Source of the DNA: Euprymna scolopes
Taxonomy: Eukaryota
Length of the DNA stretch: 64,000 nucleotides
NCBI GenBank assembly: GCA_053919585.1
Contig: CM132790.1
Reading direction: 5' to 3' (one strand)
Part shown: one piece after another, positions 764-64,000 of the stretch
Layout of the letters: each line of letters starts with the position of its first letter
Numbering within the stretch: position 1 is the first letter of the stretch
Made by a program: the position numbers and the translations under genes
Notes under the pieces: generated by a model
What the model was told of the DNA's origin: nothing
Seen by the model: the letters and a program-made list of their open reading frames with translations, nothing else
Databases searched by the model: none

Positions 764-1041
764 TGTTGTAAATAATACATAGCTTACCTGAGTGTAGCTG
801 CCGGAGTGAGGATGGTCTTCCAACAATCAAGAAGAACAATAGCAGTGTGGTTATTTATGCTAATAGAGTAAGGTAAATTGTTATAAAAACCTTCCTCCTT
901 TGTGAAGAGTCAGTCATTATTTTTTTTTATGTTACTGTGGTTACAAGACCTGAGAAGAAGGTCGCGAAGAAAATTGTATTTTTTTCGCAACCTCACTTCA
1001 GGTTAGCTACTCTTAGTTATATGACTTTTTTTTTTCCAACA
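764..1041 (+). repeat. 5' LTR (278 bp)
   Basis: TGTTGTAAAT...TTCCAACA; by eye it differs from the 3' LTR by 2 substitutions and 3 nt of poly-T length. Confidence 0.95.
882..915 (+). promoter_or_regulatory. Putative LTR core promoter: TATA box and initiator
   Basis: TATAAAA at 882-888; TCAGTC Inr-like motif at 910-915 with its A (912) 30 nt after the TATA start. Confidence 0.6.
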
Positions 1042-1043
1042 AT

Positions 1044-1059
1044 TTGCGAAAAAAATACA
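1044..1059 (+). promoter_or_regulatory. Non-tRNA primer-binding site complementary to the element's own LTR
   Basis: TTGCGAAAAAAATACA starts 2 nt after the LTR-terminal CA and is the exact reverse complement of LTR 975-990 (and 6965-6980); no TGG tRNA-type PBS is present. Confidence 0.7.
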
Positions 1060-1151
1060 TTAGTTCAACACAATTTCTTACAGAACTTTGAGTCATTAGT
1101 AACAGCAATTAGTGACAACTCTGGAAATTGTTCGATTACCCGTACAAGGAT

Positions 1152-4100
1152 ATGGAGACCTCTGGTACTTCAACTGTTGCAGATTCCAAGGAGCGACACC
1201 GTAACCAGATTTCCATTCTGAAGATGAAAATCAAGGGTAGGCTTCGTTTGTCCCGTGGCCCAGAGATCACTCCTGCTGTATTTTCTGTATTCCACAGGGA
1301 AATTTTGGAATATATCAACGAAGTTGAAATCTCCATCTGCAAGTTGCAACTTTCCTGTGTCTCTGAAGAGGAAAGAGAACTTATGGAGTCCGATTGGCTA
1401 AGTTACCAGCTGAATTTACGGAAGGAATTAGAAGATCTCTCACTCTTGTTACATCCTCCAGAGGCTAGTGGCTATTCGGAGCGACCTTCCCTTCCATATA
1501 CGCCTGGACCTTCTACGGATAGAGCTAATTCATCATTCACTGTTAGACTACCTCAAGTTCAAATCACTGGACCAACGTTCAGTGGTCGTGAAATGGAAAA
1601 CGATAGAATGAGTTTTTACAATTTCTTATCTCGATTTGAAAATTGTGCAGCAGGCATGGCAAATGACGCAGAAAAGTTAAACTTTTTAAAATGCTCGGTG
1701 TCTGGGAGACCTCTGCTGCTGATTAATCACTTAAGTTGCATCAATACAAATTATCAGCAAGCACTGGCAGTATTGAAACGAGAATATTTAGATGTGAGTG
1801 ACATCATTGATAAGATATTCCAAGATATTATCGATTTCTCCCCCAAGGGGGAAAATTCTTATGAGGATCTTGGTAGTTTCATCTGCAGAACAGCTTCCAT
1901 TCTGGAAGAACTGGCCAGCTCTCTCGATTGTGATTTCTCTGAGGATGGTTCTGCAGGGGCCCGATTAATGGCCAAAATACTTTTTTTGAAATTTCCGAGA
2001 GCATTGAAGGGAGAGCTTATACAGTTATGTGGCTCTAGAATTCCTTCTCTGTCTGTTTTAATGCGAGACACCAGTGAGGCTATTAAACGCTTGCTAATTA
2101 AAGGCGGCGGGTTGCCTGGTTCTTCGGATATCCATCGAAACAATTCTCGGGTAACCGTTTCAAAATCTAGAGCCACTACAACCAGAGATGTTTCTTTCCG
2201 CATAGATTCAGATTGTCAGGCTCCTTCTGGTTACTCGAGTAAACTACCTCCTCTGATTTGTGTTACCTTCGGTCGAGGAGGAAGAACCATCTCTGTAAAC
2301 TGCCTATTGGATACTGGCAGTGGCAGAACGTATTTGTCTGGTGATGTCTTGCACTCCTTGGGTTCCTTGAGTTCTGACGGTTTGGATTGTCATTTGAGGC
2401 TGACTACACTTCTCGGAGAATGTGAGCAAGTATACAGAGAGGTGAAACTGGATGTGGACTTGGGGTCTGGTCATGTGGGGCACTTTCCGGTACTGGTTGC
2501 CAACTCATTGGACCTATCCTTATATCTAAAAAATTGGCATTTGCTGTTGGAGGAGTTCAAGCGAACTGGATGTTCTCTGGCTGGGCAATTTGAATCTGTC
2601 ACTGATGCGGTGGCTATAAGTGGAATTATGGGTCTGGATCTGGTGCAACATTTGGGCCCCTTACAGTTGGTGCCTTGTTTGGGGGTCGGGCTTTCTCTGT
2701 TCCTGCTGGTTTGATTCCCTTTGGTGAGGTGGACACTTTTTTTCTACAAATCCTGCCCCTATTTCAAGAGATTATACGTTGTTCAGTGCAGTGATGGAGA
2801 ATACTCCCCAAGTGGAATCATCGCATGTTTGCTTCATCCTGGAAGCCGACCCTACCTATGCGGACCCCTGGGTGGATGTCTTTCCCTCTAGCGATGTGGA
2901 AAGAGGATTAGAGAAAATGTTCAGCATTGAGTCATTGGGCATTCAGGACGGAGAAGAAATTTCAGGATATGATTAGAGTATGATTCGGCAGTTCCAGGAA
3001 TCTATAATATTCAGGGATGGTAAATATCATGTGCAATTACCCTGGCATGCAGATAAGCTGGCTCTGGTTCCTTCTAATCATGCTATTGCTTTGCACGTTT
3101 TGGATCGTGTGGTCAGGAGCCTGGAGAAGAAGGGGCTGTACCAGGAGTATGTAGATGTATTCCTTCAGCAGCTACAAGAGGGCATCATAGAGGAAATACA
3201 GGTGGATCCTCAAAATTTTGTGGACTATGTATGGGTGCCTCATCGGCCAGTTTTCAAGACGGATCCGGCAGCTACTACTAAAATCAGGCCTGTATTTAAC
3301 TGTAGCTTGAAGGTCGGTAACTCTGCCTCTCTTAACGAGGCTGCATACTCTGGTGTGAATATGACAGGAGATATGTTGGACCTGTTGATGTCTTTTAGTT
3401 TTTTTTTGTTGATTTTTAGTCTTGATTGCAGACATCAGGAAAGCTTTCTTGATGGTTCGCCTTGCACTGGAGGCAGACAAGAACAGGTTCTGTTTTTTTG
3501 TGAAGGATGGTGATCGCCTTCGATGTTTCCGCTATGCCACATTGATTTTCCGGTTCACCTCGAGTCCCTTTATATTGGGAAGTATCTTGAAGTTTCATGC
3601 AGCCCAATATCCCTTTGATGAATGTCGAGTTGCGATGGAGAACCAATTCTATGTCGACAACCTGGTGGTTACTGAGTCTGACCCAGCAAAGCTTGTAAGG
3701 CTGTATTCCCAGGTTAGGAGGCGGTTGCAGGAAGGTGGATTTGTGGTGCAGTCCTGTAACTCAAACTGCGACAGCCTTAGGGAGGAGATGAGGAAAGATG
3801 GTACATTGAGTACTCATGAGGCCGGATGGGAGATGGTGCTCGGGTACCGGTATGATCCCGCACTGCTCCTGTTAAGTGTGATCCGAGTGCATCTACTAAG
3901 AGGCGAATCCTTTCGGAATCGGCAAAGGTATTTGATCCCTTATCTCTTTGCCTGCCTGTGACTATAAGGAGTAGGATTTTGGTGGGAGAATTATGGAAGC
4001 GAGGCGTGCAATGGGATGAGGAAGTCTCTCCAGAGTTTCAGTCTTCTTGGAGGAACCTGGCAGAAGACTTATCTAAATTGAGTGACATGCATTTCTGCAG

Positions 4101-6501
4101 ACAGGCCCATGACGGGAACCGAACTGGAGAGTTATACCTGTTTTGTGACGCTTCTAAAGAAGCATATGGATTTGCAGCCTACTATGTTCAGTACAACAAT
4201 TCTGCATTGATCTTTGCCAAAGCACGAGTGGCTCCAGTGAAGGATAAGACATTACCAACTTTAGAACTAATGGCGGTATTTCTTGCTCTGAAGTGTTTGC
4301 CCACTATCTTGGTAGGATGCAAGGGTGTCCGCCCTTCTAGGTTGTGTGTGGTAACAGATGCACAAGTAGTATTGTCATGGATTTTATCAGAAACGATGAC
4401 TAGTAAAAGCATCTTTGCTAGAAACAGGTTAAAGGATGTGCTGCTAATGAGCTTGGATTTGGAAACGAATTACGGCATCAGGCCGACCTTTAGGTATGTT
4501 TCTACCACCGAAAACCCGGCTGACTTGATCACTCATGGATTAACGATAAGGAAGTTCCGAGACAACTTTGACTTTTGGTACTATGGCCCTTCTTGGTTGC
4601 GCGGTGGGGTCTTGACTTGGCCGGAGCAGGAGTTGCCCTGTCTTGATGATAGGTGCCAGCAGATTGTTCGTTCATCAACAAATTTTGCGGTGATTGTGGA
4701 TGAGGAGTGTGCTTCGGTGATCTCCATGCGGCGGTTCTCTACGTTTACCCGTTTGTTGAGGGTAACTTCTTTAGTCTTCCGATTCATCGGCTTGATGAGG
4801 AAAAGGGAAGACAACTACAACAAGAAAGCCGCAATTTACTTAATAAAATGTTCTCAACAGCAGGAATTTATGGCTGAATTGAATTACCAGCGGAATCCTA
4901 TGGTAAAGCCTGCACCTAATCGTGTTCGAGCACTAGATCTTTTTCTGGATGAGGAAGGGTTGATCCGCTCGCATGGACGGCTGGACAGGTCTTCTCAGTT
5001 TTCTTATGAAGTTAAGAATCCCTTGTTGCTGGGCAAGAATCATCACCTGACCCGACTTGTAATATTAGACTGCCATCTTAAATGTTCCCATCTGGGTACA
5101 GGATCAACCTTAACGGAATTGAGATGTCAAGGATACTGGGTGCCTCAAGGGAGGCAGGCAGTCAAAAATGCCCTGAATTCCTGCACAAGGTGTAAAAGAT
5201 ACAATTCTAGGCCGGTACTGCCTGAGAACATGGCCAATCTACCAACTTCTCGTGTCGAATTTGAGGTTCCTTATAGGAATACTGGAGTGGACTTCACAGG
5301 ACATTTTTGGGTGAAGGAGGGTAACAGTGAGAAAAAAATGTATCTGTTGTTGTTCACTTGTTTGAGTGTAAGAGCAGTGCATATAGAGGTGGTACCTGAC
5401 ATGAGTATATTGTCCTTTTTTCAGGCTCTAGTCAGATTTACTAATGCACATGGTGTTCCAGAGTCAATTCTCAGCGACAACGCAAAAACCTTTCTGGGTA
5501 GTGGAAGACTGTTTAAGCGCCTTTGTCTTCTCCAGGACTACCAGGCCAAATTTGGGTCATGTAACATTAAGTAGGAGACAATTCCTCTATTTTCCCCCTG
5601 GGTTGGAGGTGTATGGGAGCGTAGCATCAAGACTTTAAAATCTTGCCTATACAAGGTCATTGGTAGGGGTAAGGTAGATTATTATACCTTCCTAACTATT
5701 GTCTCAGATATTCAGCGGGCTGTAAACAACAGGCCCCTTACTTATCAAGAGTCCGCTGACAGGCAACCAATGATTATCACACCCAATATGTTTATTAGAC
5801 CCAATAAAAGCCCTGGTCTATTGGTACCGTTGGGAAGAGATGATCTCTCCACCATGGTTCCTCCCAGCCGGAGAAGGTTGATCGAGACGATTGGATTACG
5901 AAATGAATGGTTGTCAAGATTTAGAGAACTGTGGTACAGGGAGTACCTTCTGGATCTTAGAGGAAGGATGCCAGGAAGATCTCGGATACCATTTCAGAAT
6001 CGCATTAAAAGAAATGATGTAGTCTTGGTCAAGAGCCCTTTAAAACCACGACCCTTTTGGATGTTGGGTACTATACTTGAGGTTCTCCCAGGACAAGATG
6101 GAGTGGTGAGGACAGTTCGTGTCAGACAGGGCGACGGTGTGGTGAACGTCCATTCACTGAAGAATTTATATCCAATAGAAATTTCACAATCTGATGATGA
6201 TCTTGGGGAAAGTGAACCAAATCAGGCGGGTGCATCCTCGCCTGTTGCTGCAGGTAGCAGTCAAAACCAGGAATCCTCTAGTTCATTTTCGGAAGGAGAT
6301 GGCACCATTTGGTTGTGTCCTGCCTGCAATAGACCTCAAGGGAACCAAGATATGATATGCTGCGATTCCTGTGATGAGTGGTATCATTTTGAGTGTGTTG
6401 GAATTGACTTGGCTCCACCCGCTAGACATAAATGGTACTGCAGTGATTGTGCACCTCAAAGGAGACGAAGGGGTAGACCTAGTCTGTTACCCGATCAATA
6501 G
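1152..6501 (+). pseudogene. Disrupted gag-pol polyprotein of the BEL/Pao element
   Basis: ORF pieces 1128-2714 (DUF1759-like Gag, protease LLDTGS), 2779-3513, 3422-3961 (RT YVDN 3650-3661), 3958-5574 (RNase H, IN HHCC, GVDFTG, SDNA), WERS after a TAG at 5572, and 5770-6501 (IN C-terminus, PHD). About 4 frameshifts and 2 in-frame stops. Confidence 0.9.
6307..6480 (+). other. C4HC3 PHD finger plus AT-hook at the integrase C-terminus
   Basis: IWLCPACNRPQGNQDMICCDSCDEWYHFECVGIDLAPPARHKWYCSDC then RRRRGRP, in frame with the integrase and inside the LTRs. Confidence 0.9.
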
Positions 6502-6664
6502 AAGTAGTCTTGGGTAGGACTATAAACTACAACCGACAGCGGGGCCTAGGCTAAGGGACAGAATGAGGGTACCCTGAACCACTGTTACCTCCAGGTAGCC
6601 CTTGACTGAGGCCTAGCACCTGTTAGTCCCCCTGCAGGGTCACGCCAACTTAGTTTTTTTATGA

Positions 6665-6666
<2 letters not shown>

Positions 6667-6723
<57 letters not shown>
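6667..6723. repeat. (AT)n microsatellite in the element's 3' UTR
   Basis: Pure AT run. Confidence 0.95.
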
Positions 6724-6728
<5 letters not shown>

Positions 6729-6748
6729 CACTTTTTTTTTCTTTTGTT

Positions 6749-6755
6749 GGGAGAG
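6749..6755 (+). promoter_or_regulatory. Short polypurine tract
   Basis: GGGAGAG abuts the 3' LTR and follows a T-rich tract. Confidence 0.6.
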
Positions 6756-7030
6756 TGTTGTAAATAATACATAGCTTACCTGAGTGTAGCTGCCGGAGTG
6801 AGGATGGTCTTCCAACAATCAAGAAGAACAATAGCATTGTGGTTATTTATGCTAATAGAGTAAGGTAAATTGTTATAAAAACCTTCCTCCTTTGTGAAGA
6901 GTCAGTCATTATTTTTTTATGTTACTGTGGTTACAAGACCTGAGAAGAAGGTCGCGAAGAAGATTGTATTTTTTTCGCAACCTCACTTCAGGTTAGCTAC
7001 TCTTAGTTATATGACTTTTTTTTTCCAACA
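6756..7030 (+). repeat. 3' LTR (275 bp)
   Basis: Near-identical copy of 764-1041. Confidence 0.95.
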
Positions 7031-7168
7031 TATCTTACAGTCCCGATGAAGTACGTAAATTTATTTGTTTTTATTATCTTACGGTCTCGATGAAGTACGT
7101 AAATTTATTTGTTTTTATTATCTTACGGTCCAGATGAAGTACGTAAATTTATTTGTTTTTATTATCTT
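7031..7168. repeat. 44-bp minisatellite, right part (~3 units)
   Basis: Same unit as 617-763, in register across the insertion. Confidence 0.95.
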
Positions 7169-11881: not shown

Positions 11882-14800
11882 CTTTTATACTTCTCTATCT
11901 AGTCTTTATTCATCAAACTCCCGCATACACTTTCATAATTCTCTATCTAGTCTTTATTCATCAAACTCCCGTATACACTTTCATAATTCTCTATCTAGTC
12001 TTTATTCATCAAACTCCCGTATACACTTTCATAATTCTCTATCTAGTCTTTATTCATCAAACTCCCGCATACACTTTCATAATTCTCTATCTAGTCTTTA
12101 TTAATCAAACTCCCGTATACACTTTCATAATTCTCTATCTAGTCTTTATTCATCAAACTCCCGCATACACTTTCATAATTCTCTATCTAGTCTTTATTCA
12201 TCAAACTCCCGTATACACTTTCATAATTCTCTATCTAGTCTTTATTCATCAAACTCCCGTATACACTTTCATAATTCTCTATCTAGTCTTTATTCATCCA
12301 ACTCCCATATACACTTTCATAATTCTCTATCTAGTCTTTATTCATCCAACTCCCATATACACTTTCATAATTCTCTATCTAGTCTTTATTCATCCAACTC
12401 CCATATACACTTTCATAATTCTCTATCTAGTCTTTATTCATCCAACTCCCATATACACTTTTATAATTATCTATATAGTCTTTATTCATCCAACTCCCAT
12501 ATACACTTTTATAATTCTCTATCTAGTCTTTATTCATCCAACTCCCATATACACTTTTATAATTCTCTATCTAGTCTTTATTCATCCAACTCCCATATAC
12601 ACTTTTATAATTCTCTATCTAGTCTTTATTCATCCAACTCCCATATACACTTTCATAATTCTCTATCTAGTCTTTATTCATCAAACTCCCATATACACTT
12701 TTATAATTCTCTATCTAGTCTTTATTCATCCTACTCCCATATACACTTTTATAATTCTCTATCTAGTCTTTATTCATCCAACTCCCATATACACTTTTAT
12801 AATTCTCTATCTAGTCTTTATTCATCCAACTCCCATATACACTTTTATAATTCTCTATCTAGTCTTTATTCATCCAACTCCCATATACACTTTTATAATT
12901 CTCTATCTAGTCTTTATTCATCCAACTCCCATATACACTTTCATAATTCTCTATCTAGTCTTTATTCATCAAACTCCCATATACACTTTTATAATTCTCT
13001 ATCTAGTCTTTATTCATCCTACTCCCATATACACTTTTATAATTCTCTATCTAGTCTTTATTCATCCAACTCCCATATACACTTTTATAATTCTCTATCT
13101 AGTCTTTATTCATCCTACTCCCATATACACTTTTATAATTCTCTATCTAGTCTTTATAATCCAACTCCCATATACACTTTTATACTTCTCTATCTAGTCT
13201 TTATTCATCCAACTCCCGTATACACTTTCATAATTCTCTATCTAGTCTTTATAATCCAACTCCCATATACACTTTTATACTTCTCTATCTAGTCTTTATT
13301 CATCCAACTCCCGTATACACTTTCATAATACTCTATCTAGTCTTTATAATCCAACTCCCATATACACTTTTATACTTCTCTATCTAGTCTTTATTCATCC
13401 AACTCCCGTATACACTTTCATAATTCTCTATCTAGTCTTTATAATCCAACTCCCGTATACACTTTTATACTTCTCTATCTAGCCTTTATTCATCCAACTC
13501 CCGTATACAGTTTTATAATTCTCTATCTAGTCTTTATAATCCAACTCCCATATACACTTTTATAATTCTCTATCTAGTCTTTATTCATCCAACTCCCATA
13601 TACACTTTTATAATTCTCTATCTAGTCTTTATTCATCCAACTCCCATATACACTTTTATAATTCTCTATATAGTCTTTATTCATCCAACTCCCGTATACA
13701 CTTTCATAATTCTCTATCTAGTCTTTATTCATCAAACTCCCGCATACACTTTCATAATTCTCTATCTAGTCTTTATTCATCAAACTCCCGCATACACTTT
13801 CATAATTCTCTATCTAGTCTTTATTCATCAAACTCCCGTATACACTTTCATAATTCTCTATCTAGTCTTTATTCATCAAACTCCCATATACACTTTTATA
13901 CTTCTCTATCTAGTCTTTATTCATCAAACTCCCGTATACACTTTCATAATTCTCTATCTAGTCTTTATTCATCAAACTCCCATATACACTTTTATAATTC
14001 TCTATCTAGTCTTTATTCATCAAACTCCCGCATACACTTTCATAATTCTCTATCTAGTCTTTATTCATCAAACTCCCGCATACACTTTCATAATTCTCTA
14101 TCTAGTCTTTATTCATCAAACTCCCGCATACACTTTCATAATTCTCTATCTAGTCTTTATTCATCAAACTCCCGCATACACTTTCATAATTCTCTATCTA
14201 GTCTTTATTCATCAAACTCCCGCATACACTTTCATAATTCTCTATCTAGTCTTTATTCATCAAACTCCCGTATACACTTTCATAATTCTCTATCTAGTCT
14301 TTATTCATCAAACTCCCGTATACACTATCATAATTCTCTATCTAGTCTTTATTCATCAAACTCCCGTATACACTTTCATAATTCTCTATCTAGTCTTTAT
14401 TCATCAAACTCCCGTATACACTTTCATAATTCTCTATCTAGTCTTTATTCATCCAACTCCCATATACACTTTCATAATTCTCTATCTAGTCTTTATTCAT
14501 CCAACTCCCATATACACTTTCATAATTCTCTATCTAGTCTTTATTAATCCAACTCCCATATACACTTTTATAATTATCTATATAGTCTTTATTCATCCAA
14601 CTCCCATATACACTTTTATAATTCTCTATCTAGTCTTTATTCATCCAACTCCCATATACACTTTTATAATTCTCTATCTAGTCTTTATTCATCCAACTCC
14701 CATATACACTTTTATAATTCTCTATCTAGTCTTTATAATCCAACTCCCATATACACTTTCATAATTCTCTATCTAGTCTTTATTCATCCAACTCCCATAT

Positions 14801-17800
14801 ACACTTTCATAATTCTCTATCTAGTCTTTATTCATCCAACTCTCATATACACTTTCATAATTCTCTATCTAGTCTTTATTCATCCAACTCCCATATACAC
14901 TTTTATAATTCTCTATCTAGTCTTTATTCATCCTACTCCCATATACACTTTTATAATTCTCTATCTAGTCTTTATAATCCAACTCCCATATACACTTTTA
15001 TACTTCTCTATCTAGTCTTTATTCATCCAACTCCCGTATACACTTTCATAATTCTCTATCTAGTCTTTATAATCCAACTCCCATATACACTTTTATACTT
15101 CTCTATCTAGTCTTTATTCATCCAACTCCCGTATACACTTTCATAATACTCTATCTAGTCTTTATAATCCAACTCCCATATACACTTTTATACTTCTCTA
15201 TCTAGTCTTTATTCATCCAACTCCCGTATACACTTTCATAATTCTCTATCTAGTCTTTATAATCCAACTCCCGTATACACTTTTATACTTCTCTATCTAG
15301 TCTTTATTCATCCAACTCCCGTATACAGTTTTATAATTCTCTATCTAGTCTTTATAATCCAACTCCCATATACACTTTTATAATTCTCTATCTAGTCTTT
15401 ATTCATCCAACTCCCATATACACTTTTATAATTCTCTATATAGTCTTTATTCATCCAACTCTCATATACACTTTTATAATTCTCTATCTAGTCTTTATTC
15501 ATCCAACTCCCATATACACTTTTATAATTCTCTATCTAGTCTTTATTCATCCAACTCCCATATACACTTTTATAATTTTCTATCTAGTCTTTATTCATCC
15601 AACTCCCATATACACTTTTATAATTCTCTATATAGTCTTTATTCATCCAACTCCCATATACATATTTATAATTCTCTATCTAGTCTTTATTCATCCAACT
15701 CCCATATACACTTTTATAATTCTCTATCTAGTCTTTATTCATCCAACTCCCATATACACTTTTATAATTCTCTATATAGTCTTTATTCATCCAACTCCCA
15801 TATACACTTTTATAATTCTCTATCTAGTCTTTATTTATCAAACTCCCGTATACACTTTCATAATTCTCTATCTAGTCTTTATTGATCCAACTCCCATATA
15901 CACTTTCATAATTCTCTATCTAGTCTTTATTCATCCAACTCCCATATACACTTTCATAATTCTCTATATAGTCTTTATTCATCCAACTCCCGTATACACT
16001 TTCATAATTCTCTATCTAGTCTTTATTCATCAAACTCCCGCATACACTTTCATAATTCTCTATCTAGTCTTTATTCATCAAACTCCCGCATACACTTTCA
16101 TAATTCTCTATCTAGTCTTTATTCATCAAACTCCCGTATACACTTTCATAATTCTCTATCTAGTCTTTATTCATCAAACTCCCGTATACACTTTCATAAT
16201 TCTCTATCTAGTCTTTATTCATCCAACTCCCATATACACTTTCATAATTCTCTATCTAGTCTTTATTCATCCAACTCCCATATACACTTTTATACTTCTC
16301 TATCTAGTCTTTATTCATCCAACTCCCATATACACTTTCATAATTCTCTATCTAGTCTTTATTCATCCAACTCCCGTATACACTTTCATAATTCTCTATC
16401 TAGTCTTTATTCATCAAACTCCCATATACACTTTCATAATTCTCTATCTAGTCTTTATTCATCCAACTCCCATATACACTTTCATAATTCTCTATCTAGT
16501 CTTTATTCATCCAACTCCCATATACACTTTTATAATTATCTATCTAGTCTTTATTCATCCAACTCCCATATACACTTTTATAATTCTCTATCTAGTCTTT
16601 ATTCATCCAACTCCCATATACACTTTTATAATTCTCTATCTAGTCTTTATTCATCCAACTCCCATATACACTTTTATAATTCTCTATCTAGTCTTTATAA
16701 TCCAACTCCCATATACACTTTCATAATTCTCTATCTAGTCTTTATTCATCCAACTCTCATATACACTTTCATAATTCTCTATCTAGTCTTTATTCATCCA
16801 ACTCCCATATACACTTTTATAATTCTCTATCTAGTCTTTATTCATCCTACTCCCATATACACTTTTATAATTCTCTATCTAGTCTTTATAATCCAACTCC
16901 CATATACACTTTTATACTTCTCTATCTAGTCTTTATTCATCCAACTCCCGTATACACTTTCATAATTCTCTATCTAGTCTTTATAATCAAACTCCCATAT
17001 ACACTTTTATACTTCTCTATCTAGGCTTTATTCATCCAACTCCCGTATACACTTTCATAATTCTCTATCTAGTCTTTATAATCCAACTCCCATATACACT
17101 TTTATACTTCTCTATCTAGTCTTTATTCATCCAACTCCCGTATACACTTTCATAATTCTCTATCTAGTCTTTATAATCCAACTCCCGTATACACTTTTAT
17201 ACTTCTCTATCTAGTCTTTATTCATCCACCTCCCGTATACAGTTTTATAATTCTCTATCTAGTCTTTATAATCCAACTCCCATATACACTTTTATAATTC
17301 TCTATCTAGTCTTTATTCATCCAACTCCCATATACACTTTTATAATTCTCTATATAGTCTTTATTCATCCAACTCTCATATACACTTTTATAATTCTCTA
17401 TCTAGTCTTTATTCATCCAACTCCCATATACACTTTTATAATTCTCTATCTAGTCTTTATTCATCCAACTCCCATATACACTTTTATAATTTTCTATCTA
17501 GTCTTTATTCATCCAACTCCCATATACACTTTTATAATTCTCTATATAGTCTTTATTCATCCAACTCCCATATACATATTTATAATTCTCTATCTAGTCT
17601 TTATTCATCCAACTCCCATATACACTTTTATAATTCTCTATCTAGTCTTTATTCATCCAACTCCCATATACACTTTTATAATTCTCTATATAGTCTTTAT
17701 TCATCCAACTCCCATATACACTTTTATAATTCTCTATCTAGTCTTTATTTATCAAACTCCCGTATACACTTTCATAATTCTCTATCTAGTCTTTATTGAT

Positions 17801-20800
17801 CCAACTCCCATATACACTTTCATAATTCTCTATCTAGTCTTTATTCATCCAACTCCCATATACACTTTCATAATTCTCTATATAGTCTTTATTCATCCAA
17901 CTCCCGTATACACTTTCATAATTCTCTATCTAGTCTTTATTCATCAAACTCCCGCATACACTTTCATAATTCTCTATCTAGTCTTTATTCATCAAACTCC
18001 CGTATACACTTTCATAATTCTCTATCTAGTCTTTATTCATCAAACTCCCGTATACACTTTCATAATTCTCTATCTAGTCTTTATTCATCCAACTCCCATA
18101 TACACTTTCATAATTCTCTATCTAGTCTTTATTCATCCAACTCCCATATACACTTTTATACTTCTCTATCTAGTCTTTATTCATCCAACTCCCATATACA
18201 CTTTCATAATTCTCTATCTAGTCTTTATTCATCCAACTCCCGTATACACTTTCATAATTCTCTATCTAGTCTTTATTCATCAAACTCCCATATACACTTT
18301 CATAATTCTCTATCTAGTCTTTATTCATCCAACTCCCATATACACTTTCATAATTCTCTATCTAGTCTTTATTCATCCAACTCCCATATACACTTTTATA
18401 ATTATCTATCTAGTCTTTATTCATCCAACTCCCATATACACTTTTATAATTCTCTATCTAGTCTTTATTCATCCAACTCCCATATACACTTTTATAATTC
18501 TCTATCTAGTCTTTATTCATCCAACTCCCATATACACTTTTATAATTCTCTATCTAGTCTTTATAATCCAACTCCCATATACACTTTCATAATTCTCTAT
18601 CTAGTCTTTATTCATCCAACTCTCATATACACTTTCATAATTCTCTATCTAGTCTTTATTCATCCAACTCCCATATACACTTTTATAATTCTCTATCTAG
18701 TCTTTATTCATCCTACTCCCATATACACTTTTATAATTCTCTATCTAGTCTTTATAATCCAACTCCCATATACACTTTTATACTTCTCTATCTAGTCTTT
18801 ATTCATCCAACTCCCGTATACACTTTCATAATTCTCTATCTAGTCTTTATAATCAAACTCCCATATACACTTTTATACTTCTCTATCTAGTCTTTATTCA
18901 TCCAACTCCCGTATACACTTTCATAATACTCTATCTAGTCTTTATAATCCAACTCCCATATACACTTTTATACTTCTCTATCTAGTCTTTATTCATCCAA
19001 CTCCCGTATACACTTTCATAATTCTCTATCTAGTCTTTATAATCCAACTCCCGTATACACTTTTATACTTCTCTATCTAGTCTTTATTCATCCAACTCCC
19101 GTATACAGTTTTATAATTCTCCATCTAGTCTTTATAATCCAACTCCCATATACACTTTCATAATTCTCTATCTAGTCTTTATTCATCCAACTCCCATATA
19201 CACTTTTATAATTCTCTATATAGTCTTTATTCATCCAACTCTCATATACACTTTTATAATTCTCTATCTAGTCTTTATTCATCCAACTCCCATATACACT
19301 TTTATAATTCTCTATCTAGTCTTTATTCATCCAACTCCCATATACACTTTTATAATTTTCTATCTAGTCTTTATTCATCCAACTCCCATATACACTTTTA
19401 TAATTCTCTATATAGTCTTTATTCATCCAACTCCCATATACACATTTATAATTCTCTATCTAGTCTTTATTCATCCAACTCCCATATACACTTTTATAAT
19501 TCTCTATCTAGTCTTTATTCATCCAACTCCCATATACACTTTTATAATTCTGTATATAGTCTTTATTCATCCAACTCCCATATACACTTTTATACTTCTC
19601 TATATAGTCTTTATTCATCCAACTCCCATATACACTTTTATAATTCTCTATCTAGTCTTTATTCATCCAACTCCCATATACACTTTTATAATTCTCTATA
19701 TAGTCTTTATTCATCCAACTCTCATATACACTTTTATACTTCTCTATCTAGTCTTTATAATCCAACTCCCATATACACTTTTATAATTCTCTATCTAGTC
19801 TTTATTCACCCAACTCCTATATACACTTTTCTAATTCTCTATCTAGTCTTTATTCATCCAACTCTCATATACACTTTTATACTTCTCTATCTAGTCTTTA
19901 TTCATACAACTCCCATATACACTTTTATAATTCTCTATCTAGTCTTTATTCATCCAACTCCCATATAAACTTTTATAATTCTCTATATAGTCTTTATTTA
20001 TCCAACTCCCATATACACTTTTATAATTCTCTATCTAGTCTTTATTTATCCAACTCCCATATACACTTTTATAATTCTCTATCTAGTCTTTATTCATCCA
20101 ACTACCATATACACTTTCATAATTCTCTATCTAGTCTTTATTCATCCAACTCCCATATACACTTTTATAATTCTCTATCTAGTCTTTATTCATCCAACTC
20201 CCATATACACTTTCATAATTCTCTATCTAGTCTTTATTCATCAAACTCCCATATACACTTTTATAATTCTCTATCTAGTCTTTATTCATCCTACTCCCAT
20301 ATACACTTTTATAATTCTCTATCTAGTCTTTATTCATCCAACTCCCATATACACTTTTATAATTCTCTATCTAGTCTTTATTCATCCTACTCCCATATAC
20401 ACTTTTATAATTCTCTATCTAGTCTTTATAATCCAACTCCCATATACACTTTTATACTTCTCTATCTAGTCTTTATTCATCCAACTCCCGTATACACTTT
20501 CATAATTCTCTATCTAGTCTTTATAATCCAACTCCCATATACACTTTTATACTTCTCTATCTAGTCTTTATTCATCCAACTCCCGTATACACTTTCATAA
20601 TACTCTATCTAGTCTTTATAATCCAACTCCCATATACACTTTTATACTTCTCTATCTAGTCTTTATTCATCCAACTCCCGTATACACTTTCATAATTCTC
20701 TATCTAGTCTTTATAATCCAACTCCCGTATACACTTTTATACTTCTCTATCTAGCCTTTATTCATCCAACTCCCGTATACAGTTTTATAATTCTCTATCT

Positions 20801-23800
20801 AGTCTTTATAATCCAACTCCCATATACACTTTTATAATTCTCTATCTAGTCTTTATTCATCCAACTCCCATATACACTTTTATAATTCTCTATCTAGTCT
20901 TTATTCATCCAACTCCCATATACACTTTTATAATTCTCTATATAGTCTTTATTCATCCAACTCCCATATACACTTTTATAATTCTCTATCTAGTCTTTAT
21001 TCATCAAACTCCCGTATACACTTTCATAATTCTCTATCTAGTCTTTATTCATCAAACTCCCGTATACACTTTCATAATTCTCTATCTAGTCTTTATTCAT
21101 CAAACTCCCGCATACACTTTCATAATTCTCTATCTAGTCTTTATTCATCAAACTCCCGCATACACTTTCATAATTCTCTATCTAGTCTTTATTCATCAAA
21201 CTCCCGTATACACTTTCATAATTCTCTATCTTGTCTTTATTCATCAAACTCCCGTATACACTTTCATAATTCTCTATCTAGTCTTTATTCATCCAACTCC
21301 CATATACACTTTCATAATTCTCTATCTAGTCTTTATTCATCCAACTCCCATATACACTTTCATAATTCTCTATCTAGTCTTTATTCATCCAACTCCCATA
21401 TACACTTTCATAATTCTCTATCTAGTCTTTATTAATCCAACTCCCATATACACTTTTATAATTATCTATATAGTCTTTATTCATCCAACTCCCATATACA
21501 CTTTTATAATTCTCTATCTAGTCTTTATTCATCCAACTCCCATATACACTTTTATAATTCTCTATCTAGTCTTTATTCATCCAACTCCCATATACACTTT
21601 TATAATTCTCTATCTAGTCTTTATAATCCAACTCCCATATACACTTTCATAATTCTCTATCTAGTCTTTATTCATCCAACTCCCATATACACTTTCATAA
21701 TTCTCTATCTAGTCTTTATTCATCCAACTCCCATATACACTTTCATAATTCTCTATCTAGTCTTTATTCATCCAACTCCCATATACACTTTCATAATTCT
21801 CTATCTAGTCTTTATTAATCCAACTCCCATATACACTTTTATAATTATCTATATAGTCTTTATTCATCCAACTCCCATATACACTTTTATAATTCTCTAT
21901 CTAGTCTTTATTCATCCAACTCCCATATACACTTTTATAATTCTCTATCTAGTCTTTATTCATCCAACTCCCATATACACTTTTATACTTCTCTATCTAG
22001 TCTTTATTCATCCAACTCCCGTATACACTTTCATAATTCTCTATCTAGTCTTTATTCATCCAACTCCCATATACACTTTCATAATTCTCTATCTAGTCTT
22101 TATTCATCCAACTCTCATATACACTTTCATAATTCTCTATCTAGTCTTTATTCATCCAACTCCCATATACACTTTTATAATTCTCTATCTAGTCTTTATT
22201 CATCCTACTCCCATATACACTTTTATAATTCTCTATCTAGTCTTTATAATCCAACTCCCATATACACTTTTATACTTCTCTATCTAGTCTTTATTCATCC
22301 AACTCCCGTATACACTTTCATAATTCTCTATCTAGTCTTTATAATCCAACTCCCATATACACTTTTATACTTCTCTATCTAGTCTTTATTCATCCAACTC
22401 CCGTATACACTTTCATAATTCTCTATCTAGTCTTTATAATCCAACTCCCATATACACTTTTATACTTCTCTATCTAGTCTTTATTCATCCAACTCCCGTA
22501 TACACTTTCATAATTCTCTATCTAGTCTTTATAATCCAACTCCCATATACACTTTTATACTTCTCTATCTAGTCTTTATTCATCCAACTCCCGTATACAC
22601 TTTCATAATACTCTATCTAGTCTTTATAATTCAACTCCCATATACACTTTTATACTTCTCTATCTAGTCTTTATTCATCCAACTCCCGTATACACTTTCA
22701 TAATTCTCTATCTAGTCTTTATAATCCAACTCCCGTATACACTTTTATACTTCTCTATCTAGTCTTTATTCATCCAACTCCCGTATACAGTTTTATAATT
22801 CTCTATCTAGTCTTTATAATCCAACTCCCATATACACTTTTATAATTCTCTATCTAGTCTTTATTCATCCAACTCCCATATACACTTTTATAATTCTCTA
22901 TATAGTCTTTATTCATCCAACTCTCATATACACTTTTATAATTCTCTATCTAGTCTTTATTCATCCAACTCCCATATACACTTTTATAATTCTCTATCTA
23001 GTCTTTATTCATCCAACTCCCATATACACTTTTATAATTTTCTATCTAGTCTTTATTCATCCAACTCCCATATACACTTTTATAATTCTCTATATAGTCT
23101 TTATTCATCCAACTCCCATATACATATTTATAATTCTCTATCTAGTCTTTATTCATCCAACTCCCATATACACTTTTATAATTCTCTATCTAGTCTTTAT
23201 TCATCCAACTCCCATATACACTTTTATAATTCTCTATATAGTCTTTATTCATCCAACTCCCATATACACTTTTATAATTTTCTATCTAGTCTTTATTCAT
23301 CCAACTCCCATATACACTTTTATAATTTTCTATCTAGTCTTTATTCATCCAACTCCCATATACACTTTTATAATTTTCTATCTAGTCTTTATTCATCCAA
23401 CTCCCATATACACTTTTATAATTTTCTATCTAGTCTTTATTCATCCAACTCCCATATACACTTTTATAATTCTCTATCTAGTCTTTATTCATCCAACTCC
23501 CATATACACTTTCATAATTCTCTATATAGTCTTTATTCATCCAACTCCCATATACACTTTCATAATTCTCTATCTAGTCTTTATTCATCCAACTCCCATA
23601 TACACTTTTATAATTCTCTATATAGTCTTTATTCATCCAACTCCCATATACATATTTATAATTCTCTATCTAGTCTTTATTCATCCAACTCCCATATACA
23701 CTTTTATAATTCTCTATCTAGTCTTTATTCATCCAACTCCCATATACACTTTTATAATTCTCTATATAGTCTTTATTCATCCAACTCCCATATACACTTT

Positions 23801-26719
23801 TATAATTTTCTATCTAGTCTTTATTCATCCAACTCCCATATACACTTTTATAATTTTCTATCTAGTCTTTATTCATCCAACTCCCATATACACTTTTATA
23901 ATTTTCTATCTAGTCTTTATTCATCCAACTCCCATATACACTTTTATAATTTTCTATCTAGTCTTTATTCATCCAACTCCCATATACACTTTTATAATTC
24001 TCTATCTAGTCTTTATTCATCCAACTCCCATATACACTTTCATAATTCTCTATATAGTCTTTATTCATCCAACTCCCATATACACTTTCATAATTCTCTA
24101 TCTAGTCTTTATTCATCCAACTCCCATATACACTTTCATAATTCTCTATATAGTCTTTATTCATCCAACTCCCATATACACTTTCATAATTCTCTATATA
24201 GTCTTTATTCATCCAACTCCCATATACACTTTTATAATTCTCTATATAGTCTTTATTCATCCAACTCCCATATACACTTTTATAATTTTCTATCTAGTCT
24301 TTATTCATCCAACTCCCATATACACTTTTATAATTCTCTATCTAGTCTTTATTCATCCAACTCCCATATACACTTTCATAATTCTCTATATAGTCTTTAT
24401 TCATCCAACTCCCATATACACTTTCATAATTCTCTATCTAGTCTTTATTCATCCAACTCCCATATACACTTTCATAATTCTCTATATAGTCTTTATTCAT
24501 CCAACTCCCATATACACTTTCATAATTCTCTATATAGTCTTTATTCATCCAACTCCCGTATACACTTTCATAATTCTCTATCTAGTCTTTATTCATCCAA
24601 CTCCCATATACACTTTCATAATTCTCTATATAGTCTTTATTCATCCAACTCCCATATACACTTTCATAATTCTCTATATAGTCTTTATTCATCCAACTCC
24701 CGTATACACTTTCATAATTCTCTATCTAGTCTTTATTCATCAAACTCCCGTATACACTTTCATAATTCTCTATATAGTCTTTATTCATCCAACTCCCGTA
24801 TACACTTTCATAATTCTCTATCTAGTCTTTATTCATCAAACTCCCGTATACACTTTCATAATTCTCTATATAGTCTTTATTCATCCAACTCCCGTATACA
24901 CTTTCATAATTCTCTATCTAGTCTTTATTTATCAAACTCCCGTATACACTTTCATAATTCTCTATCTAGTCTTTATTTATCAAACTCCCGTATACACTTT
25001 CATAATTCTCTATCTAGTCTTTATTCATCAAACTCCCGCATACACTTTCATAATTCTCTATCTAGTCTTTATTCATCAAACTCCCGTATACACTTTCATA
25101 ATTCTCTATCTAGTCTTTATTCATCAAACTCCCGTATACACTTTCATAATTCTCTATCTAGTCTTTATTCATCCAACTCCCATATACACTTTCATAATTC
25201 TCTATCTAGTCTTTATTCATCCAACTCCCATATACACTTTCATAATTCTCTATCTAGTCTTTATTCATCCAACTCCCATATACACTTTCATAATTCTCTA
25301 TCTAGTCTTTATTCATCCAACTCCCATATACACTTTTATAATTATCTATCTAGTCTTTATTCATCCAACTCCCATATACACTTTTATAATTCTCTATCTA
25401 GTCTTTATTCATCCAACTCCCATATACACTTTTATAATTCTCTATCTAGTCTTTATTCATCCAACTCCCATATACACTTTTATAATTCTCTATCTAGTCT
25501 TTATAATCCAACTCCCATATACACTTTCATAATTCTCTATCTAGTCTTTATTCATCCAACTCTCATATACACTTTCATAATTCTCTATCTAGTCTTTATT
25601 CATCCAACTCCCATATACACTTTTATAATTCTCTATCTAGTCTTTATTCATCCTACTCCCATATACACTTTTATAATTCTCTATCTAGTCTTTATAATCC
25701 AACTCCCATATACACTTTTATACTTCTCTATCTAGTCTTTATTCATCCAACTCCCGTATACACTTTCATAATTCACTATCTAGTCTTTATAATCAAACTC
25801 CCATATACACTTTTATACTTCTCTATCTAGTCTTTATTCATCCAACTCCCGTATACACTTTCATAATACTCTATCTAGTCTTTATAATCCAACTCCCATA
25901 TACACTTTTATACTTCTCTATCTAGTCTTTATTCATCCAACTCCCGTATACACTTTCATAATTCTCTATCTAGTCTTTATAATCCAACTCCCGTATACAC
26001 TTTTATACTTCTCTATCTAGTCTTTATTCATCCAACTCCCGTATACAGTTTTATAATTCTCTATATAGTCTTTATTCATCCAACTCCCATATACACTTTT
26101 ATAATTCTCTATCTAGTCTTTATTCATCCAACTCCCATATACACTTTCATAATTCTCTATATAGTCTTTATTCATCCAACTCCCATATACACTTTTATAA
26201 TTCCCTATCTAGTCTTTATTCATCCAACTCCCATATACACTTTTATAATTCTCTATCTAGTCTTTATTCATCCAACTCCCATATACACTTTTATAATTCT
26301 CTATCTAGTCTTTATTCATCCGATTCCCATATACCTTTATAATTCTCTATATAGTCTTTATTCATCCAACTCCCATATACACTTTTATAATTCTCTATAT
26401 AGTCTTTATTCATCCAACTCCCATATACACTTTTATAATTCTCTATATAGTCTTTATTCATCCAACTCCCATATACACTTTTATAATTCTCTATCTAATC
26501 TTTATTCATCCAACTCCCATATACACTTTTATAATTCTCTATATAGTCTTTAATCATCCAACTCCCATATACACTTTTATAATTCTCTATATAGTCTTTA
26601 TTTATCCAACTCCCATATACACTTTTATAATTCTCTATCTAGTCTTTATTCATCCAACTCCCATATACACTTTTATAATTCTCTATATAGTCTTTATTTA
26701 TCCAACTCCCATATACACT
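11882..26719. repeat. 48-bp satellite array, ~14.8 kb, ~310 monomers
   Basis: Consensus ACTTTYATAATTCTCTATCTAGTCTTTATTCATCMAACTCCCRTATAC with recurrent 47-bp variants; no spacers. Confidence 0.98.
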
Positions 26720-57250: not shown

Positions 57251-57407
57251 GTCAATTATTATGGTGGAACGCATTTGCCAAAAATATTTGCACGAATCCG
57301 CTGTGAGGGTAATGAGAGCAACCTGGCGGATTGTAAAACGTTTGAGTATTACAACCAAGTGAAATGCAGCAAGCGGGCGTCCGTAGCTGGGGTCATTTGT
57401 ACAGATG
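57251..57407 (+). CDS. LOXL2: Lysyl oxidase-like exon, second half of the last SRCR domain
   Basis: TGTAG| acceptor, G|GTATGT donor, 157 bp, phase 0/1; VNYYGGTHLPKIFARIRCEGNESNLADC..CSKRASVAGVICTD. Confidence 0.88.
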
Positions 57408-57919
57408 GTATGTATTTAATGTTTCTGTATTCNNNNNNNNNNNNNNNNNNNNNNNNNNNNNNNNNNNNNNNNNNNNNNNNNNNNNNNNNNNNNNNNNNNN
57501 NNNNNNNNNNNNNNNNNNNNNNNNNNNNNNNNNNNNNNNNNNNNNNNNNNNNNNNNNNNNNNNNNNNNNNNNNNNNNNNNNNNNNNNNNNNNNNNNNNNN
57601 NNNNNNNNNNNNNNNNNNNNNNNNNNNNNNNNNNNNNNNNNNNNNNNNNNNNNNNNNNNNNNNNNNNNNNNNNNNNNNNNNNNNNNTAGAAGATAGTTTT
57701 GAAGCATACACGGAAAAGCCCATTAGAACCGAGAAGAATTATTTTGAGGAGGTAACCCTGGCCTTACTTCTCACATACATCTCGTGCATAATGACTAAGA
57801 ACGTTGTTTTTTTATTGGGAACTCTTTCTATGTCCACGCTGTTCGAATTATAACAACAAACAAATCACAGCGATGAAATATATCGATCAACCTAAACAAA
57901 ATAAAGCATTAAAAAGTTG

Positions 57920-63256: not shown

Positions 63257-64000
63257 ATGTTTAGATTTCCTTCCTCATCATGTTCAGATTTCCGCCCTAA
63301 TCGTGTTTAGATTTCCTTCCTCATCATATTTAGATTTCTTTCCTCATCATGTTTAGATTTCCTTCCACATCGTGTTTAGATTTCCTTCCTCGTCGTGTTT
63401 AGATTTCCTCCCTCACCGGTTTTAGATTTCCTTCCTCATCATGTTTACATTTCCTTCCTCGTCGTTTTTAGATTTCCTTCCTCATCGTGTTTAGATGTCC
63501 TTCCTATCGTGTTTAGATTTCCTTCCTTATGTTTAGATTTCCTTCCTCGTCGTGTTTAGAATTCCTTTCTCATCATGTTTAGATTTCCTTTTTCATCGTG
63601 TTTAGATTTCCTTCCTCGTCGTGTTTACATTTCCTTCCTCATCATGTTTAGATTTCCTTCCTCATCATGTTTAGATTTCCTTCCTCATCATGTTTAGATT
63701 TCTTTCCTCAACATGTTTAGATTTCCTTCCTCATCATGTTTAGATTTCCTTCCTCATCATGTTTAGATTTCTTTCCTCAACATATTTAGATTTCCTTCCT
63801 TATCATGTTTAGATTTCTTTCCTCAACATGTTTAGATTTCCTTCCTCATCATGTTTAGATTTCCTTCCTCATCATGTTTAGATTTCCTGCCTCATCATGT
63901 TTAGATTTCTTTCCTCATCATGTTTAGATTTCCTTCCTCATCATGTTTAGATTTCCTTCCTCATCATGTTTAGATTTCCTTCCTCATCATGTTTAGATTT
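63257..64000. repeat. 23-bp tandem array (~32 units, runs off the window)
   Basis: Unit TTAGATTTCCTTCCTCATCATGT. Confidence 0.97.

Follow-up and report, generated by a model that had tools for sequence, protein, structure and literature searches.

Several groups of mobile elements are known to carry domains that read chromatin. In chromoviruses of the Ty3/Gypsy superfamily a reader, the chromodomain, is located behind the integrase and has been proposed to steer insertion (PMC6673714, PMC3601003). In CopiaMBD (de Mendoza et al., 2019; PMC6673714), a clade of LTR retrotransposons, an epigenetic reader of the host was captured a single time and has been retained; the binding of its MBD domain to methylated DNA has been shown, and its insertion pattern is non-random. 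The DNA transposon Ginger1-9_HM contains Ulp1 and a PHD finger, the latter forming the C-terminal end of a DDE enzyme that resembles integrases, with no donor or targeting given in the available text of its description (PMC2836005). Within the BEL/Pao superfamily itself, PHD fingers are found at the N-terminus of Gag (P0205, P0206, P0219 and P0255; the named sequences are from insects).

The element described here belongs to BEL/Pao and carries a PHD finger of the TAF3 type behind its integrase. In its way of working it resembles chromoviruses and CopiaMBD, but it belongs to neither group. Chromoviruses are Ty3/Gypsy elements with a chromodomain, which leads them to heterochromatin, while here the reader comes from an identifiable host gene and is predicted to read an active mark; Pfam searches of unbroken natural copies revealed no chromodomain, and BEL-specific domains were found instead. 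In contrast to the MBD of CopiaMBD, the PHD is a predicted reader and is associated with DNA of the unmethylated type. PHD fingers on transposable elements are already known in general. In the literature searched (Repbase, GyDB and subscription journals lay outside its scope) we did not find a TAF3-derived PHD at the C-terminus of a BEL/Pao integrase, which is apparently unreported. Neither the main texts of two BEL/Pao surveys (PMC3118150, PMC6238403) nor those of four further papers (PMC13524379, PMC12440569, PMC3601003, PMC5890265) contain the term PHD.

The element takes up about 6.27 kb (positions 764-7030) of the window, i.e., the whole 64,000-nucleotide stretch of Euprymna scolopes DNA that was analyzed. 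It was assigned to BEL/Pao because Pfam revealed DUF1759, an aspartic protease, Peptidase_A17, Integrase_H2C2 and DUF5641. Its parts are as follows.

760-763, no strand: target-site duplication TATC, 5' copy; 4-bp duplications also occur at solo LTRs and paired ends
764-1041, plus strand: 5' LTR, TGTTG...CAACA, 278 bp, from LTR comparison
1116-2714, plus strand: gag (DUF1759) and aspartic protease part of a single gag-pol frame, ending in a frame break
2977-3961, plus strand: reverse transcriptase, split into two overlapping pieces whose frames differ (2977-3513 and 3413-3961)
3856-5574, plus strand: Peptidase_A17/RNase H, integrase H2C2 finger and start of the catalytic core
5575-6183, plus strand: remaining integrase core and C-terminal DUF5641
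6184-6306, plus strand: Ser/acidic linker, 13-26% amino acid identity between families
6307-6453, plus strand: TAF3-type C4HC3 PHD finger, from Pfam, PDB match, residue check and AF2 model
6460-6501, plus strand: basic tail RRRRGRPSLLP and stop codon (6499-6501); AT-hook-like core or NLS
6746-6755, plus strand: polypurine-tract-like GTTGGGAGAG, adjoining the 3' LTR
6756-7030, plus strand: 3' LTR, 275 bp, from LTR comparison
7031-7168, no strand: target-site duplication TATC, after which a 44-bp tandem repeat resumes (left part of the repeat at 616-764)

TG...CA LTRs and a 4-bp target-site duplication are as expected for BEL/Pao, for which duplications of 4-6 bp are described (PMC12440569). The copy was inserted inside the 44-bp tandem repeat, and its two LTRs differ by two substitutions and three gap columns. 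Pfam matches in the gag piece were DUF1759 (E 3e-5) and Asp_protease_2 (E 0.005), and those in the 3856-5574 piece were Peptidase_A17 (E 5.7e-34) and Integrase_H2C2 (E 1.3e-7); the reverse transcriptase pieces are homologous to the RVT_1 region of P0002, an unbroken natural copy. The integrase core motifs VDFTG, SDNA and WERS are found at 5287, 5473 and 5614, and DUF5641 comprises residues 113-190 of the frame 5575-6501 (5911-6144, E 4.9e-11). Two unbroken natural copies contain a single gag-pol frame with the order PR-RT-RH-IN and with DUF1759, Peptidase_A17 and DUF5641. The window copy is interrupted by a TAG codon within the integrase core (5572-5574) and by frame breaks upstream in gag and the reverse transcriptase, and therefore cannot itself make the integrase-PHD fusion.

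Cys/His knuckles are a typical feature of the BEL/Pao Gag. None were visible between DUF1759 and the protease (window 1116-2714, P0002, P0003), and the two unbroken natural copies gave no zinc-knuckle match in Pfam. A TGG-type tRNA primer-binding site was not found after the 5' LTR either in family A, to which the window copy belongs (window 1042-1065, ATTTGCGAAA), or in family B loci L133-L162 (TCTTGCAAAG). Elsewhere in the window we observed a 14.8-kb satellite (11882-26719) in which a 48-bp unit is repeated 310 times with extreme strand skew, and which accounts for long spurious ORFs in this region, a 23-bp tandem array that runs past the window end (63257-64000) and a weak SRCR-domain fragment (57251-57853, E 2e-4).

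The preliminary description of this DNA had read the end of the frame as DUF5641 followed by a Ser-rich linker, a complete C4HC3 PHD finger and RRRRGRP. This order was confirmed by the translation of 5575-6501 and by Pfam, and the integrase-PHD fusion is real at the family level. A DNA search of the 5.9-Gb genome gave 337 candidates, 40 of which were scored at 98-100% identity. A single open frame from the VDFTG motif of the integrase through the PHD was present in 13 of the 30 family-A loci examined. Among 150 rows scored in the protein search, four from family A had open frames of 1795-1798 aa, and the unbroken 1798-aa gag-pol frames finish in the PHD. All eight zinc ligands were kept in 30/30 of these loci and the W/M/W residues in 27/30 (the equivalent of W868 was altered in two and that of M882 in one), and a stop before RGRP was found in 2/28 copies; since the 30 loci are the best-scoring matches, this sample is biased to young copies.

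Besides A, PHD-tailed elements of the same genome form at least five further families (B, C, D, G and H), as revealed by protein searches and by individual loci, and the PHD is retained in many copies and families. Families B and C have a PHD plus RRGRPSLLP and about 64% DNA identity to A; the sole copy of family D has the PHD and stops before the basic tail. Family G (one PHD, open frames up to 1904 aa) and family H (two tandem PHDs, many 1938-aa frames) lack the basic tail; the second PHD of H (L233/L234; P0013, P0024) is of the TAF3 type but has lost the W868 position. Families E and F are PHD-less sisters. Some peculiarities of these families should also be mentioned: the LTRs of H (L233-L252, ...GCTATA) and of F (L193-L212, ...CCCAATA) seem to terminate with TA instead of CA, the 3' region of F holds a variable tandem array, and about 12 degraded family-G-like copies are clustered at G000 C27, about 107-115 Mb, probably by local amplification. 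RNA reads from four runs gave thin coverage along the element, with one contig spanning 6050-6643, and no joints skipping the PHD were found in these runs; as the reads may derive from DNA or introns, such coverage is no demonstration of element expression.

The window PHD matches PF00628 (aa 248-292, E 1.8e-10, 41 bits against a cut-off of 24), and its eight zinc ligands are C 6316, 6325, 6361 and 6370, H 6385 and C 6394, 6439 and 6448. In TAF3 the cage has been described as D877, M882, W868 and W891; D889 or E905 holds H3R2, and I883 holds T3 (PMC12238850). The claim that the W/M/W part of this cage is retained was borne out, the equivalents of W868, M882 and W891 being at 6310, 6352 and 6379 in the window copy and invariant in most family-A loci, as given above. 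Family A also keeps D889 and I883, while D877, P881, W894 and E905 are changed. The D877 position is Q in the window copy and Q, P or R across family A, and the E905 position is A; both acidic residues are lost in families A and B, D877 being kept in G and H, and the acidic PPEE patch has turned basic. It is therefore possible that its affinity or specificity differs from that of TAF3. An AF2 model of the PHD (mean pLDDT 77.5, core 84-91) was closest to the TAF3-H3K4me3 structures (PDB 2k16/5wxh; rmsd 1.0 A over 48 columns), although this match is partly circular because TAF3 sequences were present in the input alignment. The M882A substitution weakens TAF3 binding more than 100-fold, and an intact cage has been called a hallmark of methyl-lysine reading (PMC8246079). 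Judging from the sequence, the element PHD is likely to bind methylated K4.

Comparison of natural copies by pairwise codons revealed that the PHDs of families A-D share 61-73% amino acid identity, with pN of 0.14-0.22 and pS of 0.76-1.0, i.e., with saturated synonymous sites. Between A and B the reverse transcriptase and the integrase core are 69 and 67% identical, and the linker retains only the 13-26% given above. As the PHD is as conserved as these enzymes at saturated pS, purifying selection on it has been as strong as on them. Thus, selective retention of the PHD is seen between families; within a family, where copies are still 96-99% alike, the changes arose after insertion.

Comparison with other PHD fingers points to TAF3 as the source. 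TAF3 was the top PDB match for family A (E 2e-17, 66.5 bits versus 40.3 for the next family) and family B (72.6 versus 43.4 bits) and the sole match at E<=1e-8 for family H, which confirms that the finger is of the TAF3 type. Twelve PHDs of eleven element proteins had a mean identity of 39-52% to 40 TAF3 PHDs, as against 31-37% for the PHDs of BEL Gag and 29-32% for other PHDs. In a full HMMER scan with the PHD, non-element matches were mostly TAF3-like, and all ten long ones checked contained Bromo_TP plus PHD; some TAF3-like proteins of other organisms (P0014, P0017 and similar sequences) have three PHD fingers. Family G has 33 of 48 residues identical to the vertebrate-type TAF3 P0055, with the PDDGS-x-MI stretch kept, and shares 28/48 with P0109, an orthologue almost identical to the host TAF3; the corresponding values for family A are 26/48 and 22/48. 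As G is nearer to the vertebrate type than to the host-like protein, TAF3 can be named as the probable donor gene but not its lineage.

The host TAF3 gene was located: its PHD lies on the same strand as a histone-fold exon and 47 kb downstream of it. This PHD is split at WYHW by an intron of about 7.5 kb; that of the element is contiguous, fused to the integrase and without a histone fold. The intron pattern fits capture from mRNA, and we infer that the capture was RNA-mediated. A second histone-fold match to Bromo_TP (L076), a 384-aa intronless frame with undepleted CpG, is perhaps a retrocopy and, as we take it, looks SUPT7L-like.

It can be asked whether the PHD came instead from another mobile element, such as a BEL with a Gag PHD or a Ginger- or CR1-type element, its likeness to TAF3 reflecting a shared old origin. 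PHDs are common in transposable elements (PMC6673714, PMC2836005), and the Gag PHD of P0205 also matches TAF3 best, this being its only PDB match and a weak one (20.8 bits). In PHD trees (52 columns) the element PHDs were placed among TAF3 sequences, but AU tests rejected no alternative (p 0.29-0.55), including a clade of element C-terminal and BEL N-terminal PHDs (p 0.46 and 0.29); one of the trees left out 10 sequences (nine long branches and one incomplete), and for another only 20 of the 40 TAF3 sequences were kept. These trees are therefore not taken as proof of a TAF3 origin. However, the Gag PHDs lack the W868 position, are only distantly identical to the element PHDs, as given above, and are located at aa 10-14, and their elements lie far from the C-terminal-PHD clade in a quick pol tree. 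Among 120 full-length relatives listed of 302 matches, the PHD was C-terminal in three and at the Gag N-terminus in four, and the window PHD is indeed unlike the latter, as the preliminary description had pointed out. In the pol tree the integrases with a C-terminal PHD form one clade (6 of 47 rows, SH-aLRT 100) nested among PHD-less elements, and in a DUF5641 tree of 32 sequences that included short fragments all 10 PHD-tailed ones grouped together (SH-aLRT 94). Given this and the 33/48 identity of family G to TAF3, a mobile-element source appears improbable. Capture of a host reader, with TAF3 as the donor, is the best explanation of the PDB match, the identity values, the single clade and the intron pattern. 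Two further searches were uninformative: a word-based search with the PHD tail alone gave only two plant demethylases among 185 candidates, and ESM Atlas gave no match at >=0.9.

The tail RRRRGRP (6460-6480), conserved in families A-C (67-75% identity), had been taken for an AT-hook, whose consensus is an RGRP core with basic residues on both sides. The core and the upstream arginines are present; RGRP is followed by SLL and no basic residues, Pfam gave no AT_hook match at E<=0.1 in the window frames, and RRGRP is absent from families G and H. Similar ends occur elsewhere: 2 of 117 BELs that lack a C-terminal PHD (among the same 120 relatives listed of 302 matches) terminate in RRGRP, 21 of the 22 nearest sisters have an RPxR basic tail at their end, and RGRP follows the PHD in 3 of 40 TAF3 sequences, the host TAF3 tail being basic without RGRP. 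The AT-hook assignment is thus weak, and RRRRGRP may be no more than a basic tail or an NLS.

We next compared the insertion sites of families with and without a PHD, using 500-bp flanks of independent sites (usable loci: E 22/30, F 18/20, G 14/20, H 16/20) and 320 random windows from 20 regions. Three pairs of loci on C46 and C258 with near-identical flanks (L002/L016, L009/L017 and L015/L023), which reflect either segmental duplication or duplicated haplotypes of the assembly, were each counted once. Mean CpG o/e was 1.21 in A (36 sites) and 1.27 in B (23), versus 0.69 in E (22), 1.01 in F (18) and 0.89 in random windows (320). The difference between A+B and E+F (p 3e-5), as well as that between A+B and the young family F (p 0.03), is in the direction of a higher CpG o/e in the PHD families; the A/B effect survives GC correction and fades with distance (84 flanks). 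With a threshold of CpG o/e<0.6 that was fixed before families G and H were scored, depleted flanks numbered 3/36 in A, 1/23 in B, 0/14 in G and 1/16 in H, versus 12/22 in E, 6/18 in F and 90/320 in random windows. The out-of-sample families G+H differed from E+F (p 8e-5) and from F (p 0.008), and the pooled values were 5/89 for the PHD families and 18/40 for the PHD-less sisters (p 3e-7). It should be mentioned that mean CpG o/e did not differ between G/H and F (p 0.41), nor did G/H differ from one random window per region (median p 0.15), and that these are small samples in which CpG o/e stands as a proxy and not for H3K4me3 itself.

In cephalopods, CpG-depleted DNA is a mark of methylated gene bodies. 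In octopus, 5mC is found on gene bodies and is scant in promoters and transposable elements (PMC9476566). Within the host TAF3 gene 34 of 60 windows had CpG o/e<0.6, as expected. Consequently, the PHD families avoid DNA of the methylated-gene-body type and their sisters do not, which suggests chromatin-guided insertion. As the four PHD families scored share one ancestor, this bias is a single evolutionary contrast.

The preliminary description had predicted insertion near transcription start sites or H3K4me3. The bias observed is avoidance of CpG-depleted DNA, which is no proof of targeting to H3K4me3 or promoters; promoter motifs were not enriched except for a repeat-borne YY1-like word. Among nine motifs named beforehand only this word was about 4-fold up (19 in 75.6 kb versus 10 in 160 kb), many of its occurrences lying in shared repeats, and a TSS signature was rejected. 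One AT-rich repeat containing the word was found in 6/53 flanks of A, 0/31 of B, 0/40 of E/F and 1/160 random windows (the insertions lie in it or within about 300 bp of it, as seen in the 3' flanks of L002, L009, L015 and L027 and the 5' flanks of L115 and L121), and was rejected as an insertion target because of the few cases. Neither tRNA genes (30 loci, ARAGORN) nor known RNA genes (15 loci, Rfam) were found near insertions. Many sites are located in repeats, the window copy and several others in satellites or microsatellites.

Flank GC was 0.29 in A/B versus 0.32 in random windows (p 1e-4) and 0.33 in G/H, so that AT-richer flanks match the presence of RRGRP. One could suppose that the PHD of families A-D has shifted its specificity, to unmethylated or lower-methyl H3K4 or, via the basic patch, to DNA or lipid, and forms with RRGRP a composite reader of AT-rich DNA; the replacement of acidic residues by basic ones would agree with this. 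Yet W/M/W is invariant across A-D, an intact cage marks methyl-lysine reading (PMC8246079), and the GC difference from the young family F is not significant (p 0.1). We give this explanation little credence.

A more serious alternative is that the PHD, although derived from TAF3 and under selection, has a role other than target choice, for example by binding H3 tails or a host protein in nuclear entry, transcription or escape from silencing, and that the flank bias is due to the integrase core or to selection after insertion. The single clade contrast, the missing TSS signature and the loss of D877 and E905 in A and B are in line with it, and the same caveat has been raised for the captured domain of CopiaMBD (PMC6673714). 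On the other hand, the PHD occupies the C-terminal end of the integrase, the place from which chromodomains direct integration (Gao 2008, cited in PMC6673714), and the young PHD-less family F shows no avoidance of depleted DNA (6/18 versus 5/89), which argues against purifying selection alone as the cause of the bias. We regard this alternative as rather unlikely.

We lean, by a modest degree only, towards a single account that joins capture of the TAF3 PHD, its selective retention and H3K4-tethered integration. The C-terminal PHD of the host TAF3 would have been captured by the ancestor of one BEL/Pao sub-clade, probably when spliced mRNA was taken up in reverse transcription, and joined to the integrase after its C-terminal domain; selection would have kept it in every descendant family seen, with a duplication in one. 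The integrase-borne PHD would probably bind the methylated H3K4 tail via the W/M/W cage and tether the integration complex to H3K4-methylated, DNA-unmethylated chromatin, biasing insertions away from methylated gene bodies; we infer such a causal role of the PHD. In the sub-branch of the window copy the basic RRGRP tail may add a DNA contact or nuclear import. The more specific reading, that the clade uses a TAF3-derived H3K4me3 reader to aim integration at promoter-type, DNA-unmethylated chromatin, is held more doubtfully, as possible rather than probable.

To our knowledge, target choice in BEL/Pao elements has been little studied. Reader domains on retrotransposons, PHDs and chromodomains among them, usually lack a traceable donor (PMC6673714). 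In the present case the donor is one particular gene of the host, and capture seems to have happened only once. Moreover, recently active families that have the PHD and others that lack it are present in one genome, and their insertion sites differ. Owing to the traceable donor and to the presence of both kinds of family in one genome, the question of reader-steered integration becomes directly testable on natural insertions and on isolated domains. If the proposed mechanism is true, these elements would mirror chromoviruses on the side of active marks, and variants with one PHD, with two, with a PHD plus RRGRP and with none could be compared as they occur naturally in one genome; it would also help to explain how such elements can multiply in genomes of very large size and yet spare the bodies of housekeeping genes.
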